From IMG/VR virus record IMGVR_UViG_3300025635_000120, positions 1-29,625 of that record: a stretch of 29,625 nucleotides of DNA. One strand, 5' to 3'. This document shows positions 2,221-27,624 of this stretch, piece by piece (within the stretch, counting starts at the first letter, position 1; every line of letters begins with the position of its first letter). The translations under genes were made by a program, and so were the position numbers. The notes under the pieces are model-generated. The model was given only the letters and a program-made list of their open reading frames with translations. It had not been told where the DNA came from and did not search any database. Source of the stretch: a virus (lineage: Duplodnaviria > Caudoviricetes).

Positions 2221-3782
2221 CCCTCTAGCCCTGCCTTCCATAGCCAGTTTTTACTAGCCATTATTTCATATTTTTTACTTCTCTTGTTCGAGGACTTACC
2301 CTCTGGGGTGGCTTTTGCTGTTTCTGCATACTTTAGATCAAACCCTTGCCTCCTGGCTCGCAGCCGTGTCTCTTGGCTTAGTGCTCCGTACTGCTCGCAT
2401 CGTTCACTAAACATGCCAAAGGTAAAGAACTCATTGCGATTGATACAAGATATGTTCTCAATGAAATCCTTTTTTACGCCTTTGCTACCATATAGCCACT
2501 TCTTTGGCTCTAGGTTTTTCACAAACTCGTCGACACAATCCTTGTCCATAATCATACGCTGGTCACAGAACACTAATATGTCTGATGTAGCTTCGATGGC
2601 TGCGATGTTGCGGGCTTTGGCCAGGTTATATTTATCATCCCCCAGTCGTATGTAGCGGATAGGGATATTCGCTGTAAGGGCAATACTAGCAACTGTTTGG
2701 TGTTGAGGTTCTACCCCATCATCAACAACTAACAATTCGATGTTTGGGTATGTCTGGTTAAGTGCTGCGGTGAGGCATTTTGAGGTAACCTCTGGCTTAT
2801 TTGCTACTGGTATTACTATAGACACTGGTTCGCCTGGTGTCAGGCTACGATACAGCCGTTGATACATATACGCTCGGCGTTCAAAGTTACGGTCTTTTAT
2901 CTTTAGCCATGCCTCGTGCCTAACACGTTCAATACGCTTCTTATCTGCCAGCAATTCACTAATAAGCTCCTGTATGCGTATAACATCATCTGGGGCTTTG
3001 TCTTGAATCATTATGTTGTCGCCGTTCAAGATGTCGGGAACGTGACCAACTGGACGACTTATAACAGGAACGCCGCAGAATATAGCCTCAAGTACAGGCA
3101 TTGTGCCAGATTCAAACCCATCTACCGAGTTGCAAACTAATATACCTGCTTTGTAGTAGAGGGCTTTTAACTCATCATCAGTCACTTCTTGGGCAAACTC
3201 GACTGCTTGTGTAGCCATAACCTCTTGCCAGTAAGCCATATCTGATATAGCTCCGACTAGGTACATTTTAATACCGAGTGCCTTACATGCCAGAGCTACC
3301 GGCAATATGCCCTTCTTGCTCTCTATCCTGTTGGCTACCATGATAACTGAACGGTTGTACTCGTAGCTATCATTGAACGTCCACTGGTGGGGGTCTACAA
3401 CAATGGGGATTTTCTCCACTCGTGTTGTCGTGATTTGTTTGAGGTTGCCGTATATCTCGTTGTTGTTACCCACGTTGATCTGATAGTCGTTCCAATCGCT
3501 CTCTTTGATTGAGTAGGGATTGTTATGCGTGAGGATACTCGGGATGTCTTTTAACCACTCATAGTTTTTGCGTAACATCTCTGCCGTTCTAAAGTACTGG
3601 TAATCTATAACATCAGATGTCTGTGCAAGACTCAAGAACTCCTGTAGTTGCTCTGGTGACGGTCGCTTTGGGTGTACAGCCACAACATGATAGTCAATGT
3701 TTTGGTGATAAGGTTTTACACCTTGAGCCAAACGATCTAATGCTGTTCTCTCTTTGTCTACAACACACACTACCCTAAACAT
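2217..3782 (-). CDS. Bifunctional glycosyltransferase (N-terminal GT4-like + C-terminal GT2-like)
   Basis: E-x7-E motif (ESGTMPVLE) followed by AIFCGVPVISRPVG. Second domain has SIVIPV, LLVVDDG and ARNIAAIEATSDILVFCD. Confidence 0.9.
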   Translation of the reverse strand: MFRVVCVVDKERTALDRLAQGVKPYHQNIDYHVVAVHPKRPSPEQLQEFLSLAQTSDVIDYQYFRTAEMLRKNYEWLKDIPSILTHNNPYSIKESDWNDYQINVGNNNEIYGNLKQITTTRVEKIPIVVDPHQWTFNDSYEYNRSVIMVANRIESKKGILPVALACKALGIKMYLVGAISDMAYWQEVMATQAVEFAQEVTDDELKALYYKAGILVCNSVDGFESGTMPVLEAIFCGVPVISRPVGHVPDILNGDNIMIQDKAPDDVIRIQELISELLADKKRIERVRHEAWLKIKDRNFERRAYMYQRLYRSLTPGEPVSIVIPVANKPEVTSKCLTAALNQTYPNIELLVVDDGVEPQHQTVASIALTANIPIRYIRLGDDKYNLAKARNIAAIEATSDILVFCDQRMIMDKDCVDEFVKNLEPKKWLYGSKGVKKDFIENISCINRNEFFTFGMFSERCEQYGALSQETRLRARRQGFDLKYAETAKATPEGKSSNKRSKKYEIMASKNWLWKAGLEG

Positions 3783-4584
3783 ATTTGATCTCCTTCAAAT
3801 GCCCCAGCCCTGAGTACCCCCACTGGCTACGCTTTAAGTTTTGTATAGTTTTCTGCACATATTTCGGGTGGTCACTTAACGCTATCTGCTTTTGTGGCTT
3901 CTTGAACCGTCCTAGTGACATATTCAACCATTCAAAGTAGGCACTATCCTCTGTACCAAGTTTCGGTTCCTTGAAATGTTTGTGCCACGCACGAGCCATG
4001 CGGGTTACATCGTCTCTGATCTGTGCCTCGGTTTTGAGCAACTTCTCGTAATTATAGATAGGTATACGAGCCTCTGGCACATCAGAAGGGTCTATGTATT
4101 TGCCGTCTAATGAGGGTTGACATAGATCGCCACCAGAGTCAAAGCGTATACGATCTCCGTATACCTTCTTGTTTACTGCTATGACGAGTCTTGACTTGAG
4201 GTTATACCTATCGGGCAACGTAAACTGCCACTTGTAAAAACTCAGAGCCGGTGCGTCTGGGTTGTTCTCCATTGCCTGACGTATAGCAGTAAAGTCACCT
4301 TGATGGAATATGAAATCAACATCTGCATGGATGACCCAATCACCTGTAGCAGCCTCGTACCCACGTTGAAACTGCTGGCCAATGAACGGCCAATCAAAGT
4401 TTTGTGGCCATTTGTGGTGTACGATAGTCTCTTTGCCATCCCAATCGGACTCAGACATTGCTGTTCGGCTACCGTCTACAATTACCAACTCATCAGCTAA
4501 CTCTCGGTAACAGTCAAACGCATCTCGCCAGTTATCGCCTCGTTCCTCTGCATTGGTGACAGTGGTGAATATGGATAGCTTCAT
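3775..4584 (-). CDS. Glycosyltransferase family 2 (GT-A)
   Basis: LSIFT, ADELVIVDGS and ATGDWVIHADVD (DxD) motifs. Confidence 0.85.
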   Translation of the reverse strand: MKLSIFTTVTNAEERGDNWRDAFDCYRELADELVIVDGSRTAMSESDWDGKETIVHHKWPQNFDWPFIGQQFQRGYEAATGDWVIHADVDFIFHQGDFTAIRQAMENNPDAPALSFYKWQFTLPDRYNLKSRLVIAVNKKVYGDRIRFDSGGDLCQPSLDGKYIDPSDVPEARIPIYNYEKLLKTEAQIRDDVTRMARAWHKHFKEPKLGTEDSAYFEWLNMSLGRFKKPQKQIALSDHPKYVQKTIQNLKRSQWGYSGLGHLKEIKYV

Positions 4585-5123
4585 AGCTCGTTCAACCTCT
4601 CTGCTAATTCAAAGTCGTAGTTGTCTAGTTGTTTGCGTCTTGTCTTAACCAGTTTGACTGCTTCTAGGTCACTTTTGTATGCGTGTAGACCAACTATCCA
4701 GTTCGATGTCTCACATTTTCGAGGGTTGTGGAACTCATCTAGCCGAAACATCTGGCTCTCTGGTCTCTCGGCTTCCATAAATGTATCTATATTCTTGCGG
4801 AGTATTGGTAGTGCAGCCTTGCGAATAAATTGCACACCGCCATGACAAACGGCTTGCTGCAACCAATCCCACGTCTTAAACTGCGTCCATACCTTGTCGC
4901 CCTGGTGATAGACTACACTCTTACTATTTAAGGTCTTGTTGAGCACCACATCAGCGTCCACTCGTATAAAATCATCATCTGCTTGTTCATATATCTGTTT
5001 GAGCTTTTGTGCCAGAGTGGTGTTAGCATCTTGTATCAATACAGCTTCAAAGCCATTTCGCTCAACACTGTAGACACATAGGTCTGTTGTTGGCTCGCCT
5101 ACGCTAGTAATATACGCCTTCAT
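4581..5123 (-). CDS. Short GT-A/GT2-like protein
   Basis: FIRVDADVV DxD motif and cluster context. ATG 5123 overlaps the upstream stop. Confidence 0.6.
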   Translation of the reverse strand: MKAYITSVGEPTTDLCVYSVERNGFEAVLIQDANTTLAQKLKQIYEQADDDFIRVDADVVLNKTLNSKSVVYHQGDKVWTQFKTWDWLQQAVCHGGVQFIRKAALPILRKNIDTFMEAERPESQMFRLDEFHNPRKCETSNWIVGLHAYKSDLEAVKLVKTRRKQLDNYDFELAERLNEL

Positions 5124-5680
5124 TTTTTGAACTTCACAATCCAACCACTAAAATTGTGGTCTTGATGTTTAGCTGCTCTCAAACGTTCCGCTCGGATAGT
5201 TCTGTCCCATGCATCTGTCTCAAAGCGGCGGGGTATCATCTCCTCAATGGTCAGGCCAACAGATTGTGCTAGTTTCCTAATACCTCCAGGCATATAGCGA
5301 AGTGCGTCGTCCTCGACTGGTTGGTGTAAGGGATAGATACTAGGGAACGTCACCCATGCTACCCCACCGGTTATTAGTTGGTTTGCAATAGTAATAAACG
5401 CTTGCATGGGGTTATATACATAATCAAAGACCTCAAGACAAAAGACCAGATCATAACTGCCAAAGGGTTCGTAGACCAGGTTTAAGTCCATTTCTATGTC
5501 TGGCTTGGGGCTATCCTCGTGGGGTTCAGGTAGATCACTGATCGTGTACTGTTCAACGTCCCAGCTCCGAACACGCTTTGGCATCGTTACCTGGCTACCG
5601 CCAATATCTAGTACCTTCTCGGCCTTGACATCGAGACGTGACAACCAATCATTAAGCGACTGCCGGTAACTACTACTCAC
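5120..5680 (-). CDS. Class I SAM-dependent methyltransferase
   Basis: VLDIGG, YDLVFCLEVFDYV, L..GG and P.H..D.LRY motifs, of the type seen in sugar-cluster methyltransferases. GTG 5680 overlaps the upstream TGA; the track start is 5707. Confidence 0.85.
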   Translation of the reverse strand: MSSSYRQSLNDWLSRLDVKAEKVLDIGGSQVTMPKRVRSWDVEQYTISDLPEPHEDSPKPDIEMDLNLVYEPFGSYDLVFCLEVFDYVYNPMQAFITIANQLITGGVAWVTFPSIYPLHQPVEDDALRYMPGGIRKLAQSVGLTIEEMIPRRFETDAWDRTIRAERLRAAKHQDHNFSGWIVKFKK

Positions 5681-6720
5681 GACCACTCCTCGTGTCTCAT
5701 TGTCCACTCTAGAGTATTTTTTAGGCTCTCCTCAAATGGTACAGGCGGTTTCCAGCCCATATCGTCTAGCTTCTTGCCATCTAACCCATAGCGTCTATCA
5801 TGGCCTGGGCGAGCTGCGTGGAAGTCTACAAACTCATACTTAAGTTCTTTGTTCATTAGCTTGGCAATCAGTTGGGCTAGCTCTAAGTTCGTTAGCTCCT
5901 TCTCGCCCACTAGGTTGTATCTATCGGGCTGGTCGATATGGCCGTCCTGATGCAGGTAGGGTTTAGTATTCTTGAGGATAAATAATAGAGCGTCTGCGGT
6001 GTTGCGTGAGTGCATATAGAATCGTGAGCCGACCTTCTCTGGTGTGCCGTGGATAGTCACCGTCTCGCCCTTGAGTAATTTGCGTTGAATCATAGCAGGA
6101 AACTTGCTGGGTGCTTGTGTCTCGCCAAAGTTGTTCATAGTGTTTGTGATGATAAGCGGCACACCATATGTACGCCAATAGCTTATTGCATATGCCTCTT
6201 GGGCTGCTTTGCTGGCACTGTATGGGTTTGATGGCAGGATAGTTGACCACTCCTCATGTGAGTAGCCCTCGGGAGCAGCTCCATACACCTCATCGGTAGA
6301 GAACTGGATAAACACCTCTGGTTTTGTCTCTCTGGCATACTCGAGCATGGTGAGCATCAGGTCAGAGTTAGTCTTGATTGTATAGACTGGGTTAGTGATT
6401 GCTAGATCAACATCAGATATAGATGCGAGATTTATCACATAATCAATGTGACCTATATCACTCTTTTGCTTTTCGCCGATATTAGATACCAGATCGTGCT
6501 GAATAATTGTAAGCCGTGGCAGCCAATCGGGGTGGTTACGGCAAAAGGTTGTGATGCGGTCTTTGTAGCCCTTGTGTCGGAACGAGTCCAAACCAACAAT
6601 TTCCCAGTCTGTGTTATGCATAAAATGAGCCATAATGTGTACACCGATTGCCCCGCCTATACCGGTGATGAGTACTCGTTTTACCTTCTTGGGTTGTTCA
6701 TCCCACATATCATCGCTCAT
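5677..6720 (-). CDS. NDP-sugar 4,6-dehydratase (RmlB/dTDP-glucose 4,6-dehydratase-like extended SDR)
   Basis: ITGIGGAIG NAD-binding motif, STDEVYG, PSNPYSASK (YxxxK) and RPGHDRRY. Confidence 0.92.
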   Translation of the reverse strand: MSDDMWDEQPKKVKRVLITGIGGAIGVHIMAHFMHNTDWEIVGLDSFRHKGYKDRITTFCRNHPDWLPRLTIIQHDLVSNIGEKQKSDIGHIDYVINLASISDVDLAITNPVYTIKTNSDLMLTMLEYARETKPEVFIQFSTDEVYGAAPEGYSHEEWSTILPSNPYSASKAAQEAYAISYWRTYGVPLIITNTMNNFGETQAPSKFPAMIQRKLLKGETVTIHGTPEKVGSRFYMHSRNTADALLFILKNTKPYLHQDGHIDQPDRYNLVGEKELTNLELAQLIAKLMNKELKYEFVDFHAARPGHDRRYGLDGKKLDDMGWKPPVPFEESLKNTLEWTMRHEEWS

Positions 6721-7148
6721 AGTAACGCCTCCTTAATTTTAGTCCTATACGCCCTGGATGCTTGTATCCTACACGCTCTACATCCTCTCTGAAGTTTGTC
6801 TCTTCTGAGATACAGGTTATCCCCTCGGTATTTGTGTCCCTGTGGACATTTGGTCTTTTCCAGGTTTTTTTGGGCTAGTTTGGCTCCTGCTGTGCCTCTT
6901 TTGGCATTTTCTTGGGGCGTAACTGCTTCTAGATGATTGGGGTTGCAGCACGATCTGTTTCTACATAAATGATCTATTTGTAGACCCTTTGGTATCGAGC
7001 CAATATACATTTTATAACTAACTCTATGTGAATATTCCAACTTTTTGTTTATGTGAAACAGCCCGTAACCGCCTGGTGTTCTAGCTGCAATCCATTCCCA
7101 GCACCCATAGACATTAACCCTATATTTTGTGTTAAATCTATCTAACAT
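6717..7148 (-). CDS. HNH homing endonuclease
   Basis: CWEW..GYG..HRVSY..IDHLCRNRSCCNPNHLEAVT..EN motif, plus a C-terminal KTKCPQGH...CRAC Zn-binding tail. Start placed at MLDRF. Confidence 0.9.
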   Translation of the reverse strand: MLDRFNTKYRVNVYGCWEWIAARTPGGYGLFHINKKLEYSHRVSYKMYIGSIPKGLQIDHLCRNRSCCNPNHLEAVTPQENAKRGTAGAKLAQKNLEKTKCPQGHKYRGDNLYLRRDKLQRGCRACRIQASRAYRTKIKEALL

Positions 7149-7939
7149 AGTGCCTCTCGATACTGATCGCACATTCGCTCTAAACTTAAATCCTCTAGCT
7201 CCATGATCTCTGGTGCTCCACCTGTCTGCAAGCGTCCGTGTACATCTATAATCTCCATGCCACTGGCTCTAGCTTCAAGCAAGGTGTTGCTACATGCATC
7301 GTTGAGATAGGTATACAGAAAATACTTGTTTCGTTTCATGCTATCGACGAGTGAGGGTTGCTCACCCATGAACCTAAAGTTCTCGCCATTGTAGAAGTCA
7401 AAATTGTACTCGATATTCTCGCCCGAGAACTTGCCAACTATCTCTAGTGTGCCGATGTGGTTAACAAACCAGTACCATGCATCAATCCAGCCTTTGCCCT
7501 CGTCTCGTGAGCTACGAGCGTAGAGGTAGGAACTTTCTGGGGCGTGTCGGTTTTGGTCGTTATATACAGAGGTATCTATGCCATTTAAGATCACTACTCC
7601 GTCTTTTTTGGTAAATGGTAGTAGGAACTTTCTAGCCCACTGGCTTTGGTAGATGATAGTATCGGCCATGTCAGCAAAGTCTTTGAGGCGTGTCATACCC
7701 GTGTTACGATTATTGGAATTGCGGATTGCGTTGTCTACCCTAAGAACTATCTTTTTACCGTCTGCCTGTGCCTGTTGGACTTCGGCTCTCTGCACCATAC
7801 TGGCAGATGTAATGAAGTAATGTGTTGCTTCGGCATAGTCTTGGGTAATAAGATCGCCTATGCCTTTCACGAAGTTTCTGGCAAATGTCCAGCCACCACC
7901 TTTACGTTCAGGCTCATAATTAGCGAGATAGATTTTCAC
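7142..7939 (-). CDS. Glycosyltransferase, GT4-like
   Basis: GGGWTF, ADTIIYQSQW, VILNGID and DACSNTLLEARASG motifs. Confidence 0.85.
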   Translation of the reverse strand: MKIYLANYEPERKGGGWTFARNFVKGIGDLITQDYAEATHYFITSASMVQRAEVQQAQADGKKIVLRVDNAIRNSNNRNTGMTRLKDFADMADTIIYQSQWARKFLLPFTKKDGVVILNGIDTSVYNDQNRHAPESSYLYARSSRDEGKGWIDAWYWFVNHIGTLEIVGKFSGENIEYNFDFYNGENFRFMGEQPSLVDSMKRNKYFLYTYLNDACSNTLLEARASGMEIIDVHGRLQTGGAPEIMELEDLSLERMCDQYREALC

Positions 7940-8486
7940 TCAAAAACTCCTCGAACTCATCCCAAAGTTCATATTTGTTTAACTCCCAGGAGTGCATCCA
8001 CAGTTCGACATCCTCTACTGTATCTTTGATAGATTTGTAATATTCACGCCAGGGTATATTGTTGTTTGCTCCACTGTTTGGGTGAACATGGACTAAACCA
8101 CGACCTCGTGTTAGGCGTTGGCTATCATATATCTGGTGTGTGAAGGTGGATAGACTTGGTGTGGTATAGCCTCGTGGTGGGCAGAACTTTGTAACCTTTG
8201 TGTTAAACAACGCTTCGAGTTGGAATTTTGATTCCATGATCTCACGCTCTGCTACATCATCATGCAAGTTAGTTAGGTGTCTATGTGTGACTGTATGGGA
8301 GCCTATCTCAAAGCGATTAGCAATATAACACGCCTCATCGTAGGTCAACGGGTTATAGCCTGAGTCATACGCTAGAGACTGCCATTCAACTGGCCAGTAG
8401 AACGTACACTCAAGCTCGTACTTCTCGGCAATAGCAGCGACACGAACATCGCTTGCACACCCATCGTCGCAACTAAGCCTTATCAT
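7920..8486 (-). CDS. Polysaccharide deacetylase (NodB/CE4 fold)
   Basis: LSCDDG, EIGSHTVTH, FCPPRG and LWMHSWE motifs. Confidence 0.9.
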   Translation of the reverse strand: MIRLSCDDGCASDVRVAAIAEKYELECTFYWPVEWQSLAYDSGYNPLTYDEACYIANRFEIGSHTVTHRHLTNLHDDVAEREIMESKFQLEALFNTKVTKFCPPRGYTTPSLSTFTHQIYDSQRLTRGRGLVHVHPNSGANNNIPWREYYKSIKDTVEDVELWMHSWELNKYELWDEFEEFLSENLSR

Positions 8487-9294
8487 TGAGTTTTCTGTGC
8501 CCTTTGTTTAGATTTATGACGGTTTTAAACAGTTTAGCCATATCATCTGCACCCACCAACTTTGCATAGGCCGCAAGTGCCGGAACGTCTTTATCCCAAC
8601 ATTTACTAGCCCAGCCTCTATTGTGCCGTACAGCTCTGAGATGCATAGAATCAGTCCTGGGGTCTGACTGCCACGCTTGGTGTATGTTTATGAAGCTGGT
8701 ATCTGATTTCTGTGCGAGGCTTAATAGGGTATTGATAAACGTAACCTTAAGTGCACCATAGCTATTCTCGACCAGCTTTGTGATCTCGGCTTCAAGAGCG
8801 GTAACAACATGTATATCTACATCCGGCGACATCCTAGACCATAGAACCTCGGCGGCTTCATCGGCAACTTCTTTTTCACCGCCCACTACTAGCATGGAGT
8901 GTAAGCGTGGATCTGACTGGTCTGGGTACTTCCAGAAGTGTACTGGATAGTTACCCTCTCCAACATACTCGACTGATACGGCGATACGTTTCTTGTATTT
9001 TTTGACAAGCATATCTGTTGTGCCTGGCATCAACGCTGACTTGATAATTATAAGCGGACAGTCTATCCAGCTAACTACATCCTCGACGATAGAAATATCA
9101 AGGCTACCGTCTTTGTTATGAGGAGTGAACACAGCCACGATTGCAACATCACACTTATTAACTGCTGCTTTGCCCTTCTCTTCGTTCTCTTCATCGGCAA
9201 ACAGGAATTTTGGCGGGTCGTAGACTAATGCCTCTGGGAACATTTTGCTATACGACTGACCGACCTTACCAAACCCTACTATTGCTACCTTCAT
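8473..9294 (-). CDS. UDP-glucose/GDP-mannose dehydrogenase family protein (short, lacks C-terminal domain)
   Basis: VGFGKVG, AVFTP, IIKS..PGTT, EAEITKLVEN and GWASKCWDKD (variant of the catalytic GGxCxxKD). Confidence 0.85.
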   Translation of the reverse strand: MKVAIVGFGKVGQSYSKMFPEALVYDPPKFLFADEENEEKGKAAVNKCDVAIVAVFTPHNKDGSLDISIVEDVVSWIDCPLIIIKSALMPGTTDMLVKKYKKRIAVSVEYVGEGNYPVHFWKYPDQSDPRLHSMLVVGGEKEVADEAAEVLWSRMSPDVDIHVVTALEAEITKLVENSYGALKVTFINTLLSLAQKSDTSFINIHQAWQSDPRTDSMHLRAVRHNRGWASKCWDKDVPALAAYAKLVGADDMAKLFKTVINLNKGHRKLNDKA

Positions 9295-9593
9295 ACTGCC
9301 TCCATTGTAAATTGCTTATTATCTGGTGTGAGTAACTGACTTTTGATTTTATCCATCTGACCACCCGTTGCATGAATGACTAGCTCATCTATCCTCCCCG
9401 CTTCCTTTGCTGCTAAACGATTGTCATTGCCACACCTACATTCAAAACCCCATGTACCATCTGGGCGTAGCCTAGCAGCCAATATGTTTGTCTGTAGTTC
9501 CCTCTCCTGTGCTGTTACATAACGTTCGTCTAGGATAGTAAGCACATCAGATTCTTTGCATTTGAGACAAGTTACTTTGTATTTCTTTGTCAT
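9291..9593 (-). CDS. Small Zn-finger protein, first gene of the glycan/late operon
   Basis: CLKC...CRC cysteine pairs. Preceded by AAGGGCAGCC-ATG and a promoter. Confidence 0.7.
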   Translation of the reverse strand: MTKKYKVTCLKCKESDVLTILDERYVTAQERELQTNILAARLRPDGTWGFECRCGNDNRLAAKEAGRIDELVIHATGGQMDKIKSQLLTPDNKQFTMEAV

Positions 9594-9622
9594 GGCTGCC
9601 CTTATTTAAGTGTCGTACTAGT

Positions 9623-9651
9623 AATTTACCACTAGCAATTCAAGAACTCAA
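9623..9651 (-). promoter_or_regulatory. sigma70-type promoter of the glycan operon
   Basis: TTGAGT (9651-9646), 17 bp spacer, TAAATT (9628-9623) with extended TG. Confidence 0.6.
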
Positions 9652-9659
9652 TACTAATC

Positions 9660-9668
9660 TTATCCACA
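9660..9668 (+). promoter_or_regulatory. Perfect DnaA box
   Basis: TTATCCACA, intergenic, 8 bp upstream of the -35 of the glycan-operon promoter. Confidence 0.55.
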
Positions 9669-9716
9669 GGCAATAGCACCCTCTGTCCCTCTAAAGCAGG
9701 GGCTGGGGGTTGATGA

Positions 9717-9921
9717 CCTGAGTGCTACTGATGTAGTTGAACCCGATTCGTATGCAGCGATGCATGAATCCTTTGATATGTCCCTTGATAGAACTACTCT
9801 CAGTCTTTGCTTGTGTACTCATTAGAGTCGCTGTTGTCAGGGCAGACAGAGCAGCGGTTCTGAGAATACACAATCCGGCAGTTTTGTTTTCTGATGGGCT
9901 GCGAACCATCCAGCACCCAGG
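9717..9921 (-). ncRNA. Candidate multibranched structured RNA, family unknown
   Basis: Nested helices at 9717-9726/9912-9921, 9727-9738/9792-9804, 9745-9770, 9811-9820/9864-9873, 9829-9833/9852-9856 and 9893-9897/9906-9910. Mismatches become G-U pairs only on the minus strand. Confidence 0.6.
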
Positions 9922-9952
9922 TTTTTAAAGTACTGTGTGCTTATTTTCTGTG

Positions 9953-9981
9953 TTGACAAATAGATGTTCATACGCTACATT
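9953..9981 (+). promoter_or_regulatory. sigma70-type promoter for a short RNA
   Basis: TTGACA (9953-9958), 17 bp spacer, TACATT (9976-9981). Confidence 0.7.
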
Positions 9982-9985
9982 TAGT

Positions 9986-10024
9986 GTGAAGCGTTGAGCA
10001 ACCCACCCTAACCGGTGGGTTTTT
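9986..10024 (+). ncRNA. Candidate ~40-nt antisense RNA
   Basis: Lies between the promoter and an immediate terminator hairpin. Its 5' GAAGCGTTGAGCAA is repeated at 10037-10050. Confidence 0.55.
10000..10024 (+). terminator. Rho-independent terminator
   Basis: AACCCACC-ctaacc-GGTGGGTT followed by a T run. Confidence 0.75.
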
Positions 10025-10062
10025 CTATTTGCTAGCGAAGCGTTAAGCAAACAGTGATCGTA

Positions 10063-10091
10063 ACTATAAACAAAAAACCCTGCTGATGCAA
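10063..10091 (-). promoter_or_regulatory. sigma70-type promoter convergent with the 9953 promoter
   Basis: TTGCAT (10091-10086), 17 bp spacer, TATAGT (10068-10063). Confidence 0.6.
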
Positions 10092-10095
10092 GGTT
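10068..10095 (-). terminator. Rho-independent terminator
   Basis: AACCUUGC-AUCA-GCAGGGUU followed by UUUUGUUU on the minus strand. A T run also follows on the plus strand. Confidence 0.7.
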
Positions 10096-10186
10096 CTTTT
10101 TCTGTGTCAGAGGCTAGCTGTTATTCTTACCGGTACGTTACGTTTACGCTCTCGGTAAGTGTCATAATGTTACGCATAACACTAGC
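10070..10186 (-). ncRNA. Candidate ~115-nt small RNA
   Basis: Bounded by a near-consensus promoter and a terminator. Helices at 10113-10124/10176-10186 and 10126-10132/10153-10159. Confidence 0.55.
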
Positions 10187-10189
10187 TAC

Positions 10190-10218
10190 ATTGTAGCATA
10201 CCTCTTATGTTATGTCAA
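10190..10218 (-). promoter_or_regulatory. Near-consensus sigma70-type promoter
   Basis: TTGACA (10218-10213), 17 bp spacer, TGc-TACAAT (10195-10190). Overlapped by the palindrome GCTACA-T-TGTAGC (10185-10197). Confidence 0.75.
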
Positions 10219-10230
10219 GCCCTTTGGCAC

Positions 10231-10293
10231 TAAAATAGCCAGGGATTAAAGGTGGGCAACCATATACGATAAAATAGTATACTCCCTGGCTAC
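10231..10293 (-). ncRNA. Candidate ~60-nt hairpin RNA with anti-start-codon loop
   Basis: Perfect 10-bp inverted repeat 10236-10245/10283-10292. Extended -10 TGgTATTAT at 10308-10300, 3' UAUUUU, loop AUGGUUGCCCACCUUUAA. Confidence 0.55.
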
Positions 10294-10355
10294 CTCGTAA
10301 TAATACCACAAATATATAGTGACAAATATCACAGAAAGAATGTAGCATAAAAGGC

Positions 10356-10384
10356 TTGCATCCATGTGGCGTAAGTAGTATGAT
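10356..10384 (+). promoter_or_regulatory. Early operon promoter
   Basis: TTGCAT (10356-10361), 17 bp spacer, TATGAT (10379-10384). Confidence 0.7.
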
Positions 10385-10418
10385 AGGGGTACAATCAAGT
10401 AAATGCAGGAGGGCAACC

Positions 10419-10484
10419 ATGCAAACAATCAATATAAAACTAATACCTCGGGTCGCCTACAGAGTCCGTGTGAGGGTGTTCTAA
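10419..10484 (+). CDS. 21-aa leader peptide MQTINIKLIPRVAYRVRVRVF
   Basis: Preceded by AGGAGGGCAACC-ATG. Its stop overlaps the next start (TAATG). Confidence 0.6.
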   Translation: MQTINIKLIPRVAYRVRVRVF

Positions 10485-10657
10485 TGATACCTATCAACGA
10501 GTCTGAGCTGACGGTACACGAGCTGGAACTTCTAGCCATATACCACGAGAACTTGATAGAGGCTGGCCTTGTGCTTGCGGTCGTTGAATATGACCAGTTC
10601 AAACACGCAGCACTCTACGGGTTTGACCCGGAGCAGGAAGAGGAGCTAGATATATGA
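10484..10657 (+). CDS. Hypothetical acidic protein
   Basis: True start is likely MIPINE, coupled to the leader peptide. ATGA overlap with the next gene. Confidence 0.65.
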   Translation: MIPINESELTVHELELLAIYHENLIEAGLVLAVVEYDQFKHAALYGFDPEQEEELDI

Positions 10658-11268
10658 CAGATACAATAGTAACTGTATTGCAAAAGATACAGACCGAGAT
10701 TAAAGCTCCAAAGTCTCAACAGGGTCGCTTTGGTAAGAGTCGTTCCGCAGAGGACATCATTGCCCAAGCTAAGCCAATACTTGCAAAGCATGGTGCAGCA
10801 ATAACCCTAGCAGATGAGATAGTACAGGTAGGAGAACGCAACTATATCAAAGCCACAGCTTGTCTCCGCTGGAACGAATCAGTGTTAGAAGTCCATGGAT
10901 GGGCATGGGAGGGTGAGTTGAACCGAGGGCTAGACGCAAGCCAGGTTACAGGTATGGCAAGCTCATACGCCCGTAAGTACGCTATGGGTGGCTTGTTCGC
11001 CCTAGACGACACTAAAGATGCAGACGGCCATATGGACGCACCTGTATCTAACCTAGCCAAAGCCAAAGATGCAGACGGCCATATGGACGCACCTGTATCT
11101 AACCTAGCCAAAGCCAAAGACGCACTCAACAAGGAGTTTGAGCGATACGGGCATACAACCGATGAAGCAAAAAAGAAAATCATTGACACTGTAATAGGCA
11201 AGGCAAAGATTGACACAGAAGCAGAAGTTGATGCGGTCATGCAAGCACTTGAGGATGGACTAGTATGA
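10654..11268 (+). CDS. erf: ERF family single-strand annealing recombinase
   Basis: RSAEDI..KP, YIKATA and SQVTGMASSYARKYAMGGLF.LDDTKDAD signature. Confidence 0.9.
   Translation: MTDTIVTVLQKIQTEIKAPKSQQGRFGKSRSAEDIIAQAKPILAKHGAAITLADEIVQVGERNYIKATACLRWNESVLEVHGWAWEGELNRGLDASQVTGMASSYARKYAMGGLFALDDTKDADGHMDAPVSNLAKAKDADGHMDAPVSNLAKAKDALNKEFERYGHTTDEAKKKIIDTVIGKAKIDTEAEVDAVMQALEDGLV
11014..11120 (+). repeat. Exact 51-bp tandem duplication (17 aa) in erf
   Basis: Units start at 11014 and 11065; partial AAAGA at 11116. Encodes KDADGHMDAPVSNLAKA twice. Confidence 0.95.
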
Positions 11269-11477
11269 ACGGCCAATACCCATACCAGTTTGATGAGCCT
11301 TGGGCCATCCATCCGGATGTAGATACGCCGATAAACGATGTACAGCCCGACCTACAGTCTGGCGTAAAGTTCCTGACCTATACAGTAGCAAAGCATACAG
11401 GAGTACTATGGTTGGTCGAGAAACTTCCATTCCTAGAGAAAAGACAGTGGGTTAAGGACATCGAGAGGCCATTCTAA
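11265..11477 (+). CDS. Hypothetical protein
   Basis: GGAGG-like RBS and overlapping start/stop on both sides. Confidence 0.65.
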   Translation: MNGQYPYQFDEPWAIHPDVDTPINDVQPDLQSGVKFLTYTVAKHTGVLWLVEKLPFLEKRQWVKDIERPF

Positions 11478-11917
11478 TGATTAAGGAAACCATCAAACAA
11501 ACAGGAGAGATTATCGAGCTGGCCGACGCTACATTTACCGATGTAATGAAGTCCTGGCAAATAGCCACAGACTACGAGAAGGCTGGCAAGGCACTCAAAG
11601 AGAAGCTCAAGAAGGCTATCCCGCAGTACATAGGCAGTAATGGCCGGAGCGAAGAGATAGACGGCTATCAGTTTCGGCTAAGTAATGTGCAGAAGATGAC
11701 ATACGACAAAGCAGCCCTGCGTGAAGCACTGGGCGAGGACACCTACGACCTATTCATGGAGCCAAAGAAGAAGGCTATAGACGAGTACCTGGCCGAGTTA
11801 GTATCAAAGGGCGACCCCGATGATATTACAACCAAGGTACGGGCAGCAATGCTACCAAAGGGCAAGCCGTATAGTCAGACGGTATTAGAGAAACTAACAA
11901 GAGAGGAAACGGTATGA
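11477..11917 (+). CDS. Hypothetical helical phage protein (recombination-module associated)
   Basis: Coupled ORF of 146 aa with coiled-coil character. Confidence 0.7.
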   Translation: MIKETIKQTGEIIELADATFTDVMKSWQIATDYEKAGKALKEKLKKAIPQYIGSNGRSEEIDGYQFRLSNVQKMTYDKAALREALGEDTYDLFMEPKKKAIDEYLAELVSKGDPDDITTKVRAAMLPKGKPYSQTVLEKLTREETV

Positions 11918-12537
11918 GTAAGTTCAATGAGGGAGAGATAGTTGAGGTCTTCAAAACAGGCACACCCTTTAGTGTGGGTGAAAAAGTAAGGTTAGTGACG
12001 AAAGACAGCGATGATGACTGGAAGGCTGAGTACCTAGACGGTAGTGACTACTGGTACGTCACCGAAGATGAAGTTAGGTACACAACAAGTAATTCAAAGG
12101 AGAAGAAACCAATGGGACGAAGAACATTTAAACTAATCAAAGATACACCAACAGTTAAGAAGGGTGCGTTGTACCAAGAACAGTGTGAAGATGGCACACA
12201 ACCATACCAAGTCATTACACTTGATAACGACCTAGACCGAAGTGATGGCCAGTATGCCCCAAACACTATCATTGACCGAAAGTTAGTAGAAGAAGCACCA
12301 GCGTTCTTTGTAGAGGTGTTCAAAGTAGAACCAGAGTACATGACTCGTGAGCAGCTAGAGGCATTTGAAGCGTTTCTAGGTCAGAAGAAGCGAGGCCGAC
12401 CAGTAGGCTCAAAGACCAAGAAGGCAGCACCAACCACCAAAGCTAAAATGGCCGCCTCATGGACACCAGAACGCCGTAAGGCACAAGCCCGCCGTATGAG
12501 AAAGCTGCACAAGCAACGCAAATTGGGGGCAAAGTAA
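11914..12537 (+). CDS. Hypothetical protein with AT-hook-like basic C-terminus
   Basis: KKRGRPVGSK and SWTPERRKAQARRMRK segments. Confidence 0.7.
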   Translation: MSKFNEGEIVEVFKTGTPFSVGEKVRLVTKDSDDDWKAEYLDGSDYWYVTEDEVRYTTSNSKEKKPMGRRTFKLIKDTPTVKKGALYQEQCEDGTQPYQVITLDNDLDRSDGQYAPNTIIDRKLVEEAPAFFVEVFKVEPEYMTREQLEAFEAFLGQKKRGRPVGSKTKKAAPTTKAKMAASWTPERRKAQARRMRKLHKQRKLGAK

Positions 12538-12761
12538 TGTCCGGGACACCCGCCGGGGGCAAGAAGGCCGCAGCAGCTAACAAAGCAAAAGACCCCGACT
12601 TCTACAAGAAGATAGGCTCAATGGGCGGCAAGAAAGGTCACACAGGCGGTTTCTACGCCAACCGTGAACTCGCCCGCTCTGCTGGCTCCAAGGGAGGCAA
12701 GGCAAGACGGAAGAACTTCACCGAGAAAGTCGGGGATATGGACTTTATAGTTTATGAGTAG
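12537..12761 (+). CDS. KGG-repeat (stress-induced/Con-10-like) protein
   Basis: AGGKKAA..DFYKKIGSMGGKKGHTGGF.ANRELARSAGSKGG. Confidence 0.85.
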   Translation: MSGTPAGGKKAAAANKAKDPDFYKKIGSMGGKKGHTGGFYANRELARSAGSKGGKARRKNFTEKVGDMDFIVYE

Positions 12762-12873
12762 CGAAGAAGTATACCTATTGTTTAGGCAGTACTGGGCAGC
12801 TATATGGCCGATTGTGCTGATACTCTTCGTAGCCTGGGCGTATCTAATGTTTGATGATTGGAGGAAGCGATGA
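12754..12873 (+). CDS. 39-aa single-TM protein
   Basis: Not in track. MSSEEVYLLFRQYWAAIWPIVLILFVAWAYLMFDDWRKR; ATGA overlap with the next gene. Confidence 0.65.
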   Translation: MSSEEVYLLFRQYWAAIWPIVLILFVAWAYLMFDDWRKR

Positions 12874-13220
12874 GGGAAATACTAGTCGAGATAGACAAAC
12901 CGATTTGGGGTGGCGGGAAGCCACAGATAGGTATAGCAGACTTCCGTGTAGAGCAAGCCGACAAAGTGAACGTGCAGATTGTATACACCCGCAAGGACGG
13001 AACACGCTCATACCCAGATACCTACTCGATGCTCGTGAGTAAGCTTAAAAACTACCCTACACAAAGGGTTAGAGGCGGCGTGACGCTCTATGTAGCCCCG
13101 CTCAAGGACTGGGAGACAGAGTTTGACAAAGACTTCCCCCGGTACAAGCGGCCAGTTGTTAAACCGAGTGAGCCGCCAAAGCCAACAGAACCAACACCTA
13201 AACAGGGGAAACTACTATGA
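12870..13220 (+). CDS. Hypothetical protein, Pro-rich C-terminus
   Basis: GGAGG RBS before ATG 12870. Confidence 0.7.
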   Translation: MREILVEIDKPIWGGGKPQIGIADFRVEQADKVNVQIVYTRKDGTRSYPDTYSMLVSKLKNYPTQRVRGGVTLYVAPLKDWETEFDKDFPRYKRPVVKPSEPPKPTEPTPKQGKLL

Positions 13221-13360
13221 ACGCAATACTAACATTATTCTGGTTCGGGTTCCTCATCTGTGCAGCAATCTTTGTATTCCAACTAGTAATTGGCATCGTT
13301 ATGACTGTGTTTACGCTGCTCATAGCTGGTATAGCCAAACTACTCGGCAAAGACCTATGA
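13217..13360 (+). CDS. 47-aa membrane protein
   Basis: Not in track. MNAILTLFWFGFLICAAIFVFQLVIGIVMTVFTLLIAGIAKLLGKDL; ATGA overlaps at both ends. Confidence 0.65.
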   Translation: MNAILTLFWFGFLICAAIFVFQLVIGIVMTVFTLLIAGIAKLLGKDL

Positions 13361-13385
13361 ACACACTTAAACAGGAGGAGATGGG

Positions 13386-13691
13386 ATGAGCGACACTACT
13401 AAGGTAAAAGAAGAGCTGCTAGACCATTTCACGCATGGTGCTCCCTCTTATAAGATGGCGAATGAGGCGGTTAAAGCAAAAGCCCGAGAAGAAGCCGAAG
13501 CAATCCTCCCCCTCATAGACAAGTACACCAGAGAGACGGAGTTGCAAGCACTTCTACATGCCTATAGTACAATGGAGGCAGAATATAACGCCTATCCAGT
13601 AAATATAGGCAAGTTCATACGCTATACCAAACAACTAGCTTGGGATGCTCTAAAGGAACACCAGCTAACCGAACAGAAAGATGGGGAGTAG
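13386..13691 (+). CDS. Hypothetical protein
   Basis: AGGAGGAG RBS. Confidence 0.7.
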   Translation: MSDTTKVKEELLDHFTHGAPSYKMANEAVKAKAREEAEAILPLIDKYTRETELQALLHAYSTMEAEYNAYPVNIGKFIRYTKQLAWDALKEHQLTEQKDGE

Positions 13692-13693
13692 TT

Positions 13694-14035
13694 ATGGGCA
13701 AGATAATAAAACAAGTTAAGCTCAATAAATGGAACAACCTGGTTGGAGATGAGGCAGTATCTGTTGACCAGAGACTAGAAGCTGAAATTCCAAGTGTTAC
13801 AACTGTAGCCTATGGTGTTATTGTCTGTCCGTTCTGCTATACAAGACATAGCGAAAAAGATTTTTGGGTAGACATGCTACACAGAAGTGAAATATCCTTT
13901 GAGGGTTTTTACTGTCGAGAATGCGAGCAATACTTTGAAGTAGGCACTACATTTGAGAGAATGCTGTACATATGTGACGGTTTGGTTGACAGAGACACCA
14001 CCGAACCCACTAACTCTAACAATAAGGAGAAATAG
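13694..14035 (+). CDS. Zn-ribbon protein
   Basis: CPFC and CREC pairs. GGGGAG RBS before ATG 13694. Confidence 0.7.
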   Translation: MGKIIKQVKLNKWNNLVGDEAVSVDQRLEAEIPSVTTVAYGVIVCPFCYTRHSEKDFWVDMLHRSEISFEGFYCRECEQYFEVGTTFERMLYICDGLVDRDTTEPTNSNNKEK

Positions 14036-14037
14036 AT

Positions 14038-14460
14038 ATGATAGCATTAACAGTAATAGTTGGTTTGATAGCTCTAGGGCTACTAGTTTTTGGCGGCTAC
14101 AGGATGGTAGTAGATTATGAGGGCGGTCTGTCTGCTGGCACAGGTTTTGTGCTTGGTATTGTGTGGGTGGTTTTGTTCATTGGTATATCCAATGTGCAAT
14201 TCTCTAACGATACACTAACAGGCTACATATACTCAAAGGACAGCAAGTGGGGCGTAACCAACTACCACATCCGTTTTAGTGAGACAGCAGGAGAGGATGT
14301 ACAGCCTAGCTTTTGTGCAAACAGTGATACACAGAACGCCAGAGATTTAGATGCTGTCGTTGGTACTGGTAAGAAAGTGACCGTCAACATCCCGTCAAAG
14401 GGCTGGTACTTTAGCAATGACGTATACCACTGTGCATCTGACGCAGTCTTGGAGAAGTAG
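14038..14460 (+). CDS. Membrane protein (2 TM + extracytoplasmic domain)
   Basis: Two hydrophobic N-terminal segments. AAGGAG RBS. Confidence 0.75.
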   Translation: MIALTVIVGLIALGLLVFGGYRMVVDYEGGLSAGTGFVLGIVWVVLFIGISNVQFSNDTLTGYIYSKDSKWGVTNYHIRFSETAGEDVQPSFCANSDTQNARDLDAVVGTGKKVTVNIPSKGWYFSNDVYHCASDAVLEK

Positions 14461-14494
14461 CTATGACCTACTACCAACAGTATAGGAGGATGGT

Positions 14495-15055
14495 ATGAGA
14501 ATACTTGTAGCCTGTGAATACTCTGGTCGTGTGCGTGAGGCATTTAGGAAACTAGGGCATGATGCTTGGAGCTGTGACCTATTGCCCGCAGATGATGGCT
14601 CACCCTACCACTACCAATGTGATGTGTTTGAAGTGATTGATAAGGATTGGGATATGATGATTGCTCACCCACCATGCACAGACTTAGCGGTATCAGGGGC
14701 AAGACATTTTGCCGCAAAGATAGCAGACGGGAGACAACAAGTAGCACTAGACTTTGTACAGAAACTTCTTGACGCACCTATCCCCAAAATAGCACTAGAG
14801 AACCCAATAAGTGTTATTAGCACAAAGATACGAAAACCAGACCAGATTATTCAACCTTGGATGTTTGGTCATGGCGAGACTAAGGCTACCTGTCTTTGGC
14901 TAAAAAATCTACCTAAATTAGAACCAACAGATATAGTGGACGGTAGAGAAAACAAAGTCTGGAAAATGCCGCCTAGCCCTGACAGATGGAAACTACGCAG
15001 CCTGACTTACCAAGGAATAGCGGATGCAATGGCAGAACAGTGGGGTAAGATATGA
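14495..15055 (+). CDS. Phage-type DNA cytosine-5 methyltransferase (short form)
   Basis: ILVACEYSG, AHPPCT (catalytic PC), IALENP, QPWMFG, TKATCLW and RSLTYQGIA motifs. Confidence 0.85.
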   Translation: MRILVACEYSGRVREAFRKLGHDAWSCDLLPADDGSPYHYQCDVFEVIDKDWDMMIAHPPCTDLAVSGARHFAAKIADGRQQVALDFVQKLLDAPIPKIALENPISVISTKIRKPDQIIQPWMFGHGETKATCLWLKNLPKLEPTDIVDGRENKVWKMPPSPDRWKLRSLTYQGIADAMAEQWGKI

Positions 15056-15162
15056 CCTGCCCACACTCAGTAATCGACCATGACCCACTCACCGATGAAT
15101 ACTTTTGTGTAAAATGCGGAGATGTGGTTGAGGAAGATTTGGAGAACTGGGATGTTATTTAA
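15052..15162 (+). CDS. 36-aa Zn-ribbon peptide (TFIIB-ribbon-like)
   Basis: Not in track. MTCPHSVIDHDPLTDEYFCVKCGDVVEEDLENWDVI; ATGA overlap. Confidence 0.6.
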   Translation: MTCPHSVIDHDPLTDEYFCVKCGDVVEEDLENWDVI

Positions 15163-15180
15163 CCAACCTATAAGGAATAA

Positions 15181-15483
15181 ATGATGAAGGACGCAGACTT
15201 AAAATTGCTCAGAGAGATAAGGCTACACTTGTTTCGATTGCATGACAACTGGGCGAAAGACCCGAACAATGACGGACACCACAAGTCTAATGAGGGGTAT
15301 GTAGGATATTCCGTTGGCTACCCCAACTGGTTCGAGGCAGAGAACTATCTAAATGACAAGCCAGAAGTGTTTAGCGTGGAGGTCTACTCATACCTGTTTG
15401 GCCCACATAGATTGCATCAATTCCGCACCTTACAAGAAGCTTGGCAAGAAGTTAAAACATGGGAATATGAGGCACTATCATGA
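15181..15483 (+). CDS. Hypothetical protein
   Basis: AAGGA RBS, coupled to the next gene. Confidence 0.7.
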   Translation: MMKDADLKLLREIRLHLFRLHDNWAKDPNNDGHHKSNEGYVGYSVGYPNWFEAENYLNDKPEVFSVEVYSYLFGPHRLHQFRTLQEAWQEVKTWEYEALS

Positions 15484-15764
15484 GCGTAGATAGTACAGAT
15501 GAGTTGGATGCGATACTGGACAAGCACAGGATATGCCCGAACGGTAGACCAGATAACACGTGCGAGCCATGCAAAAGAGCTGATGTAGAAGCCAAAGCAG
15601 CCCTACAGTCACTAATAGAGGATGCTAGGGTCGATGAACTGAATAAACTCAAGGTTCAATTCATACGCTCGCACTGGGAAAGGCTATGTGGAGAGAGAAA
15701 CTCATGGGCGAAGTATGTAGACCGCCGTATCGCTCAGCTATCTAATAGTAAGGAGGGTAAGTGA
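15480..15764 (+). CDS. Hypothetical protein
   Basis: ATGA and GTGA overlaps; HxxC...CxxC. Confidence 0.65.
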   Translation: MSVDSTDELDAILDKHRICPNGRPDNTCEPCKRADVEAKAALQSLIEDARVDELNKLKVQFIRSHWERLCGERNSWAKYVDRRIAQLSNSKEGK

Positions 15765-16156
15765 TTGAACGTATGTGCACCGGTTGTGGCACTACATTCG
15801 TGCAGTACAACTCCCTGCAAAAGAAGTGTGGTAAGTGTGCATACAACCTCAACGCCAAGCCCAAGAAGCCGATGAAGCGTATGGGTAAGGTCGGCAAGCA
15901 ATGGGTATCTGACCGGAACGAGTGGATAAGCAACCACCCGCCATCCCATGAGGGCTACTGGTACTGTGTGATCGGCGGCGGAGCTTTGACTATAGATACA
16001 TTAACTATAGACCACGATATCAGCCGAGGTCGTGACCAGTCCAAGCGAAGCGACCAGGACAATTTACAGCCTATGTGTGGCTTTCACAATGGCGACAAGG
16101 GCAGTTTATCCACAGCTGAGTATCTGTTAAAGAGGCCAGACTTAAAATGTCGTTGA
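15761..16156 (+). CDS. HNH endonuclease with N-terminal Zn finger
   Basis: CTGC..CGKC, then TIDH...NLQPMCGFHNGDKG. AAGGAGG RBS, GTG start. Confidence 0.85.
   Translation: MIERMCTGCGTTFVQYNSLQKKCGKCAYNLNAKPKKPMKRMGKVGKQWVSDRNEWISNHPPSHEGYWYCVIGGGALTIDTLTIDHDISRGRDQSKRSDQDNLQPMCGFHNGDKGSLSTAEYLLKRPDLKCR
16106..16114 (+). promoter_or_regulatory. Perfect DnaA box (within HNH 3' end)
   Basis: TTATCCACA about 40 bp upstream of the 16153 promoter. Confidence 0.4.
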
Positions 16157-16181
16157 CATAGTATACCGCTTGTGCTAGTAT
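16153..16181 (+). promoter_or_regulatory. sigma70-type promoter
   Basis: TTGACA, 17 bp spacer, TGc-TAGTAT. Confidence 0.7.
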
Positions 16182-16212
16182 GTAGTTGTACTACTAAAAA
16201 GAAAGGGCAACC

Positions 16213-16419
16213 ATGCAGTACGAAGAAACACCAATAAAAACAAAAGTAACAGCCAAAGACAACGCTCTCAAAGAGCTTGCAAGGCTCGGAACTCTTAGCA
16301 TCCTATGGTTCATAGTGAAGCGGCACAAGGTCGGTCTACTAGCAACTTGGGCTGTGATAATGACAGCGTTGGTAGTATGTCCACCGCTACCACAGATCAT
16401 CATTGGCTTGATGGTGTAA
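16213..16419 (+). CDS. Small membrane protein
   Basis: Preceded by AAAGGGCAACC-ATG; hydrophobic C-terminal half. Confidence 0.7.
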   Translation: MQYEETPIKTKVTAKDNALKELARLGTLSILWFIVKRHKVGLLATWAVIMTALVVCPPLPQIIIGLMV

Positions 16420-24112: not shown

Positions 24113-24627
24113 TTATCCTGAGTGTTTAGCTTCTAACTGTTGCTTCTTTTGAATTAGACCGTATATGTGCATATTAGTAAACAACTCATGGGTCGGTTCA
24201 TTCATAAAATCCTCATAGGATAGGTGCAGCAGTTGGCGGTATTGCCACATCAGGATCTCATCATTTGGGTGATCGTTCTGGATGGCTTGTTTTAAAGCCT
24301 CTAGTCTTTTGGGTCAGTTTTCTTCCCGACTACAGTTTCAAAACAATGAATTGCCGTCTCTTGGTCAATATCACCGACGTCCTCTTTAGTGACGTCCTGC
24401 AGTTTACCCTCATCGTCAGGGAACTTACCCTCTACGAAGTAAGTAGTCAAAAGATCGAGCATCATAGTGATTGACTTACCGTTGTCCTCTTCGCCGTCTT
24501 TAGGTAGTTTTGCCAGCATACCCGTGTAATCTTTTACAGGGATAGCCTTGAATGTGAGGTAGCCGTCTTTATATTCTTCGCCAAGAAACTCTAAAGTCAC
24601 TTTGCGTTTGATTACTATTTTGCCCAT
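24113..24627 (-). CDS. Tail assembly chaperone GT (-1 frameshift product)
   Basis: Slippery C CCA AAA at 24313-24307. The -1 frame is open (RLEALKQAIQ...EAKHSG) to TAA 24113, just before the tape measure gene. Confidence 0.8.
24301..24627 (-). CDS. Tail assembly chaperone G
   Basis: Acidic 108-aa protein between the tail tube and tape measure genes. Confidence 0.8.
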   Translation of the reverse strand: MGKIVIKRKVTLEFLGEEYKDGYLTFKAIPVKDYTGMLAKLPKDGEEDNGKSITMMLDLLTTYFVEGKFPDDEGKLQDVTKEDVGDIDQETAIHCFETVVGKKTDPKD

Positions 24628-24644
24628 GTTGCCCTTTCTCTTAC

Positions 24645-27421: not shown

Positions 27422-27575
27422 GTTTTTTTATCCTGTAATCGTTAGTAGACACCATGTCTTTAGTGATTGCTGCCACACCACTATCAATAAGACCAAATGC
27501 TTCATTGTTAGACAACTCGACTGTTTGGCCTACTCGGTACTTCTTGTGTGGTGCAATTATCTTTACTCTTAACAT
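27414..27575 (-). CDS. Small head-associated protein
   Basis: GGAGG RBS before MLRVKII; GQTVEL...A..LI..GVA motif common after capsid genes. Confidence 0.7.
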   Translation of the reverse strand: MLRVKIIAPHKKYRVGQTVELSNNEAFGLIDSGVAAITKDMVSTNDYRIKKRG

Positions 27576-27624
27576 GTATCCTCCCCAATGCCCTCCGAGA
27601 AGGGCAAAGGGCAAGTCATGTTGA

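Follow-up and report, generated by a model that had tools for sequence, protein, structure and literature searches.

The window, by which we mean the whole stretch of DNA analysed here, is the 29,625-nt record IMGVR_UViG_3300025635_000120 (positions 1 to 29,625), a fragment of an uncultured tailed phage. It encodes an HK97-type capsid protein, a tape measure protein and a holin, and it carries a glycan-modifying gene block as well as an early block on the plus strand that includes an Erf recombinase gene. The glycan block (290-9294, minus strand) comprises about ten genes, including glycosyltransferases, a UDP-glucose dehydrogenase, an epimerase, a deacetylase and methyltransferases; it is conserved, precedes the terminase throughout the family, and is possibly involved in glycosylation of the virion or the host surface. 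In the window (9291-16419) and in the relatives G001, G002 and G425, the early block points the opposite way to the late genes; in most relatives the two are co-oriented (window 9291-16419 compared with G004-G007, G010 and G011). A gene for a 100-aa CxxC protein, which follows the tail genes in most relatives, heads the glycan block in the window. The hairpin that is the subject of this analysis lies in the gap separating the divergent glycan and early blocks, and a palindrome, GTGA-N6-TCAC (10319-10332), which is identical in G001 and resembles a CRP-type box, lies in the same gap between two divergent promoters.

Four genome-collection contigs carry relatives of the tail tube gene; three of these contigs belong to two Saccharibacteria-labelled assemblies and the fourth to a Gammaproteobacteria-labelled assembly. 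A distant relative (26% identity at the tail tip) is a prophage that carries an integrase and sits in a genome of the same phylum (L422-L423; G633:C3, about 109 kb to the contig end). Because of these two observations, the host of the window phage is likely, though not certainly, an ultra-small Saccharibacterium. No Hfq was found in 101 genomes of this likely host class. In the distant prophage the tyrosine integrase gene adjoins engA, and the early region is cut by the contig end.

The coordinates reported for the hairpin, its -10 box and its matches in the first-pass annotation all agree with the sequence. An extended -10 box on the minus strand, TGgTATTAT (TGGTATTAT, 10308-10300), is the predicted promoter of the hairpin RNA, with a start at about 10294-10293, and is identical in G001. 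The perfect 10-bp stem described earlier was also recovered, with arms TAGCCAGGGA (10236-10245) and TCCCTGGCTA (10283-10292) enclosing a 37-nt loop; an 11th pair is a G-U that is present on the minus strand only. The folded RNA (10235..10293, minus strand) contains this 11-bp closing stem, a 6-bp inner hairpin and a single-stranded seed, and its fold has a z-score against shuffles of -2.6 in one run and -3.6 in another. The loop is not open: the inner hairpin at 10282-10262 occupies the AU that would face the target AUG, leaving as the free seed only positions 10246..10261 of the minus strand, GGUUGCCCACCUUUAA (equivalent to GGUUGCCCACCU), which is antisense to the Shine-Dalgarno (SD) sequence and spacer of the targets. 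G001 keeps the stem, the inner hairpin and the seed, the last with a single U deletion, and since the base facing the A of the AUG has changed in G001, the conserved contact is the SD and spacer. Five of the 17 pairs vary between the window and G001, and all five are still paired on the minus strand (one double change and four single changes giving G-U pairs), though with only two sequences in the comparison a shuffle control is uninformative. Rfam gave no family at gathering score in the window, and none of the eight sub-threshold matches in 9550-10500 was C4.

The 3' end of the hairpin RNA, and hence its length of about 60 nt, is uncertain. The U-tail previously noted after the stem (UAUUUU) is present but weak, with four U, and only six of the 19 elements in the curated set described below have at least five U within 8 nt after the stem. 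The next canonical terminator in the window is 139 nt beyond the stem; this intrinsic terminator (10072..10099, minus strand) could form the 3' end of a longer primary transcript of about 220 nt containing the hairpin. A second minus-strand promoter (10218-10190) sits between the hairpin and this terminator. Rather than the weak U-tract, trimming of the RNA as far as the stem, or a downstream terminator, probably determines where it ends. Four runs consulted for expression hold relatives as contigs of patchy coverage, which carry neither strand nor transcript ends and so count neither way.

The motif GGGCA[A/G]CCAT occurs four times in the window, once in the hairpin loop and once at each of the starts 10419 (plus strand), 16213 (plus strand) and 9593 (minus strand). 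In 300 second-order Markov copies of the window it occurred on average 0.14 times and at most twice, and no copy contained four. When the 51 gene starts of the window were ranked by a model that adds opening costs to duplex energy, the three starts to which the loop had been proposed to be antisense were the top three, at -14.3 (16213), -14.1 (9593) and -14.1 kcal/mol (10419), as against a median of -4.5 kcal/mol over all 51. Pairing covers the SD and the spacer of these starts, but the AUG is not reliably covered. Each of the three lies directly behind sigma-70-like promoter boxes, as read from the sequence. An earlier cofold model had ranked the window's own target at 10419 only 37th of 138, and that of G425 100th of 129, which counts against the pairing. 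It was replaced by the duplex-plus-accessibility model after the poor window ranks, and its result was given less weight because a cofold model cannot form a duplex inside a closed loop; as modelled, the poor ranks show that the seed is partly structured.

The target at 10419 (AGGAGGGCAACC-ATG, 10407..10421, plus strand; rank 3) is the start of the first early ORF and co-varies with the loop across relatives. Upstream of it is a predicted sigma-70 promoter, TTGCAT-17-TATGAT (10356..10384, plus strand), divergent from the RNA promoter; it was read from the sequence and is absent from the consensus scan list, and similar -35/-10 pairs are found upstream of the first early genes of most relatives. 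What had been called the first early ORF (10419..10484, plus strand) is indeed the first, but it has only 21 codons and its stop overlaps the ATG of a 57-aa ORF (10484-10657), which is followed by the Erf recombinase gene (10654-11268; identified by PHROGs). Over window positions 10492-10651, all 14 substitutions in one relative's contig are at third codon positions of the 57-aa ORF. Translational coupling is possible; the genes downstream have SD-like sites of their own.

The best-ranked target, AAAGGGCAACC-ATG (16202..16215, plus strand), is the start of a gene for a 68-aa hydrophobic protein that has its own promoter, TTGACA-17-TAGTAT (16153-16181). The motif is kept in G001 and G009, and the protein matched no family in Pfam, PHROGs or the Atlas, the last giving only hypothetical clusters below 0.9. 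The second-ranked target, TTAAATAAGGGCAGCC-ATG (9591..9609, minus strand), starts the 100-aa CxxC protein gene at the head of the glycan block, behind an extended -10-like TGgTAAATT (9631-9623), and is kept in G001 and L142. Because its homologs rank eighth or lower in 12 more distant relatives that carry the element, we consider this target specific to the close lineage of the window; the earlier proposal that the first gene of the late/glycan block is a target holds in that lineage and not family-wide. A fourth, weaker possible target, GGGCAAC-ATG (24625..24634, minus strand; rank 5 of 51, -10.1 kcal/mol), belongs to a gene that the first-pass annotation called a tail chaperone. This match is real, but it is weaker, shows no consistent co-variation in relatives and is not found family-wide.

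Relatives were gathered through virion, glycan and early proteins, and whole contigs were fetched and examined because the neighbouring 100-aa gene sits elsewhere in most of them. A comparable unit is present in 16 of the 18 distinct records with an identifiable early start, the window included; in the other two, G003 and G417, the hairpin element was not found. Each unit begins with a -10 box, and the hairpin of 35-76 nt that follows is closed by a GC-rich stem; a segment that lies mostly in the loop's 3' half is antisense to the first early start of the same phage. With G001, L340 and L346 added, the curated set numbers 19. The last two, which have no more than two early genes in common with the window, were chosen on a detector match; of 80 loci reached by way of the KGG-motif gene, about a quarter gave such a match, mostly weak, and only L340 and L346 were kept. 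The -10 box stands 3-14 nt ahead of the stem on the antisense strand in all 19 elements and on the other strand in three of the 19, although its presence was partly a criterion by which the 19 were selected; in 12 of them it is TG-extended. In most phages the unit is on the strand opposite to the target ATG and 80-165 nt from it, while the units of G007, G008, G416 and L340 are 0.9-1.8 kb away, and in G414 and G008 the unit is on the same strand as the early gene with the loop nonetheless antisense to it. The seeds of G007, G008 and G416 are short (6-11 nt) and 0.95-1.8 kb distant from their targets, and G008 folds weakly (z -1.0). In G007, G008, G416 and G418 a canonical terminator follows 4-28 nt past the stem, indicating a stand-alone RNA in these phages. 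Several phages carry the tag on more than one gene: five starts in G418, leftward genes in G006 and G010, and second starts in G002, G433 and L346. The product of the first early gene differs widely among the relatives, from 21 to 182 aa.

No single consensus structure emerged from MAFFT/RNAalifold on 12 elements, and shared ancestry is evident for subsets only. A scan of viral contigs with a DNA pattern of loop and stem returned 119 loci, none of them a convincing member, and recovered the hairpin in two close relatives only, because the seeds differ between phages. Side by side with this survey we noted a dense tRNA-like array at about 3100-4500 of G417 (L302), a relative in which the hairpin element was not found.

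If the loop and the start tags form a pair, they should change together, and across the relatives they do so; this was the comparison proposed in the first-pass annotation. In a target-blind test, in which hairpins were defined without reference to targets (six curated elements are missed by its filter), a promoter-led loop matches the phage's own first early start over at least 10 nt in 12 of 20 phages, or in 10 of 18 after dropping L340 and L346, which had been picked on outcome. Non-self matches of at least 10 nt were found in 2 of 380 pairs (permutation p = 1e-5), and the sense-strand control on promoter-led loops gave a match in 1 of 20. By pairing energy, 12 of the 19 elements have the phage's own first early start as their best target, and 17 have it among the top three. 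Self energies average -13.1 kcal/mol, as against -5.1 +/- 2.5 kcal/mol for non-self pairs, and self is best in 14 of 18 rows of the matrix. Starts for G005, G011, G418, G420, L340 and L346 were first taken from detector output; a clear promoter lies upstream of the start in G005, G011, G420 and L346, and none is clear for G418 and L340. The matrix excludes G001, whose start region does not differ from the window's; G009, G012, G013, G415, G419, G421-G424, G426-G429, G431, G432, G434, G435, G437 and G439 were left out as records in which the early start was missing or duplicated or which fell outside the family. Specificity is incomplete, in that the RNA of G006 scores better on the window's start than on its own, and the seeds contain anti-SD letters. 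The clearest case is that of G004 and G005, whose tail-tip proteins are 91% identical and whose first early genes are orthologous, and which yet carry different, self-matched seeds, with self energies of -16.8 and -16.1 and cross energies of -5.9 and -4.3 kcal/mol.

The fold, the promoter box on the antisense strand, the complementarity and the lock-and-key co-variation, along with the absence of a recognisable protein repressor in the records searched, suggest with a probability of roughly 0.72 that the hairpin is a phage small RNA acting in trans as a translational repressor, likely to shut off early genes. Comparative evidence argues strongly for pairing between the RNA and its mRNAs; the function is inferred, and repression rather than activation from position only. 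The RNA has the features of a trans-encoded base-pairing sRNA, namely a promoter of its own (by consensus only), a structured RNA and a short seed against distant SD regions. It would be made from its predicted sigma-70 extended -10 promoter. Through its loop seed it would then bind a tag, specific to each phage, that covers the ribosome-binding site of whichever genes come first behind promoters used by the host polymerase, and so would likely occlude the ribosome and block translation of these genes. As no repressor protein was found, the early promoters, being of a constitutive host type, would need an off switch, and an RNA that builds up with time and gene dose would supply one. Both divergent promoters may fire on phage entry, and the RNA, shielded by its GC-rich closing stem, could build up with time and genome copy number until it closes the early wave, that is, the recombinase operon and the small membrane protein. 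Early expression would then take the form of a pulse, in a class of hosts that yielded no Hfq, and an incoming phage bearing the same tag might be silenced as a side effect.

The first-pass annotation had gone further, proposing a trans-acting RNA repressor that confers immunity. Its antisense RNA against promoter-proximal starts is borne out by the co-variation, but immunity in the sense of cI is not, as no integrase, resolvase or HTH_3 repressor scored above the cut-off in 20 records. Six-frame searches for a tyrosine integrase (PF00589), a resolvase (PF00239) and HTH_3 gave 0 of 20, with 19 of the 20 records linear and possibly partial; Pfam on 138 and PHROGs on 150 proteins of relatives gave no repressor and no integrase, and none of the 52 window proteins matched an antirepressor or repressor. 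A version that does without integration has the RNA as the phage repressor holding a non-integrated carrier or plasmid-like state, with same-tag immunity and with the seeds defining immunity groups. The divergent, cI-like position of the RNA, the fast change of seeds between close relatives and the very lack of an HTH_3 repressor above cut-off in the 20 records are in keeping with it, as are a 32.5-kb family contig that was binned together with a genome of Saccharibacteria, a nearby second short RNA-like unit that has a repeated segment, and the precedents of P1 C4 and P4 CI (PMC12197685, PMC4825925). We nevertheless regard it as quite unlikely: the same 20 records hold no tyrosine integrase or resolvase, the 63 ORFs of the terminal-repeat record G004 include no partition or replication initiator family, and beyond G004 only one ParB-like match (G007) and one O-like initiator (G425) were seen. 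Moreover, blocking translation of a few starts would leave the constitutive promoters active. Most records are fragments, and the binned contig may be a co-binning artefact. A bolder proposal, which we hold to be doubtful, is that a family of CPR (Saccharibacteria) phages has wholly swapped the protein repressor for an Hfq-free, programmable hairpin RNA that silences all tagged early genes and keeps the phage quiet without integration, its 10-14-nt seed marking an immunity group that diversifies by matched changes of key and lock.

It is also conceivable that a longer leftward transcript begins with the hairpin as its structured 5' end, or that the hairpin is an antitoxin of the type I toxin-antitoxin kind directed at one small toxic protein, the other matches being by-products of duplicated promoter-RBS cassettes. 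The weak U-tails, the window terminator 139 nt downstream and the second promoter after the stem would fit a leader; small hydrophobic proteins do occur among the targets (16213, and leftward genes in G006, G010 and G418), and early-gene start regions are duplicated, with an 18-nt copy in G418. However, the target seen most consistently is the neighbouring first early gene, with its widely differing products, and in G007, G008, G416 and G418 the terminator close behind the stem speaks for a stand-alone RNA, which makes this reading very unlikely. That the motif works as DNA (an operator, a site of recombination or an origin), or represents an RBS variant of the host, with the copy in the hairpin a neutral duplication, appears to us highly improbable. 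The palindrome and the second repeat unit show that DNA signals may exist in the intergenic region, but the tag is asymmetric and differs from phage to phage, the -10 box stays with the antisense strand even where the unit is flipped, stem positions that differ between the window and G001 form G-U pairs on that strand, and no recombinase or repressor family was found in the 20 records. Both an RBS variant and a DNA operator are further argued against by the close relatives in which orthologous targets bear different, mutually matched seeds. GGGCARC precedes none of 142 starts in 160 kb of host-class contigs and so is not an RBS variant of the host. The idea that the early module inverts between the two outward-facing tags was given up, as no recombinase family was found.

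A trans-acting repressor of this kind has partial counterparts among known antisense RNAs. CopA of the CopA-tap-repA system, which sets plasmid copy number, is constitutive, cis-encoded and fully complementary to its target, with loop-initiated pairing and a short leader ORF coupled to the next gene, while type I antitoxins with divergent genes, such as IstR, each serve one toxin. The window RNA would likewise be a constitutive small RNA with loop-initiated pairing, and a short leader ORF likewise precedes the next gene; it differs in that its pairing spans 8-16 nt in trans and that no rep gene follows. The closest mechanistic parallel is C4 of P1 and P7, which is described as an antisense RNA whose loop sequences block the ribosome-binding region of ant, and which underlies the heteroimmunity of P1 and P7 (PMC12197685, PMC8198154). 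As in C4, a phage antisense loop near the RBS blocks translation (here by prediction), and its sequence differs between related phages. C4 sits in the operon of its target (c4-icd-ant), controls an antirepressor and serves the protein repressor C1, whereas the window RNA has its own divergent promoter, targets the first genes of several promoters and comes with no repressor or antirepressor family that we could find. It would thus work like P1 C4 but is not a member of the C4 family, having no Rfam match, a separate promoter and no icd/ant or C1 context. The CI RNA of the satellite phage P4 arises by processing of its target transcript and makes transcription terminate prematurely at seqA/seqC (PMC4825925). 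It too silences the phage's own early genes by pairing (replication genes in P4), but the complementary sites in the window are SD regions of starts on separate transcripts. Cluster K mycobacteriophages carry a 13-bp consensus, SAS (GGGATAGGAGCCC), at many starts, for which PMC3203893 leaves open an RNA or a protein partner. Like the tags found here, SAS is an asymmetric, phage-specific sequence over the SD just ahead of start codons (of non-structural genes in SAS). Here, by contrast, mostly one to five genes are tagged, the tag differs per phage and a matching loop is present; no antisense hairpin partner of SAS is described in the excerpted text (PMC3203893). A description of the present element was not found in the literature as sampled in part, the supplements of PMC10690425 (ten thousand candidate viral RNAs) and bioRxiv 10.1101/2024.03.08.584096 being outside the search.

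Genetic switches in phages are nearly always deduced from protein repressors, and this widespread family of small phages with probable CPR hosts shows none. Its RNA seed is re-keyed in step with the targets even among close relatives, which amounts to a set of natural compensatory mutants. The system therefore offers a direct test of how phages time early shut-off, or exclude their kin, by RNA only, and suggests a plausible function for private start-site tags like SAS. If our reading is correct, these phages would supply largely orthogonal, Hfq-independent pairs of translational repressor and target (predicted self -13 versus non-self -5 kcal/mol), and the hairpin would be among the first regulatory RNAs with an assigned function in the CPR world.

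Some further RNA-like units deserve mention. Close to the hairpin is a second unit (9953-10050, plus strand), with a sigma-70 promoter (9953-9981), an RNA of about 40 nt and a terminator (10000-10021); its 5' segment (9988-10001) recurs just beyond the terminator, at 10037-10050. A scan of 21 records, made without a shuffle control, found a promoter, short RNA and terminator with a 10-14-nt repeat nearby, direct downstream or inverted upstream, in G001, G002, G003, G004, G006, G007, G011, G433 and L346. As no replication initiator was found in G004, the second unit is a candidate for an RNA-controlled origin, or alternatively for a second RNA pair. The strong minus-strand promoter at 10218-10190 (11 of 12, TG-extended), directly behind the hairpin, with a terminator about 110 nt on, marks a third possible small RNA (10218-10072, minus strand). 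Finally, promoter-led hairpins with loops antisense to starts of the same phage were seen outside the curated set in more distant phages, at L331 8529-8580 (G427 27529-27580), in G428 and at L371 1551-1597.
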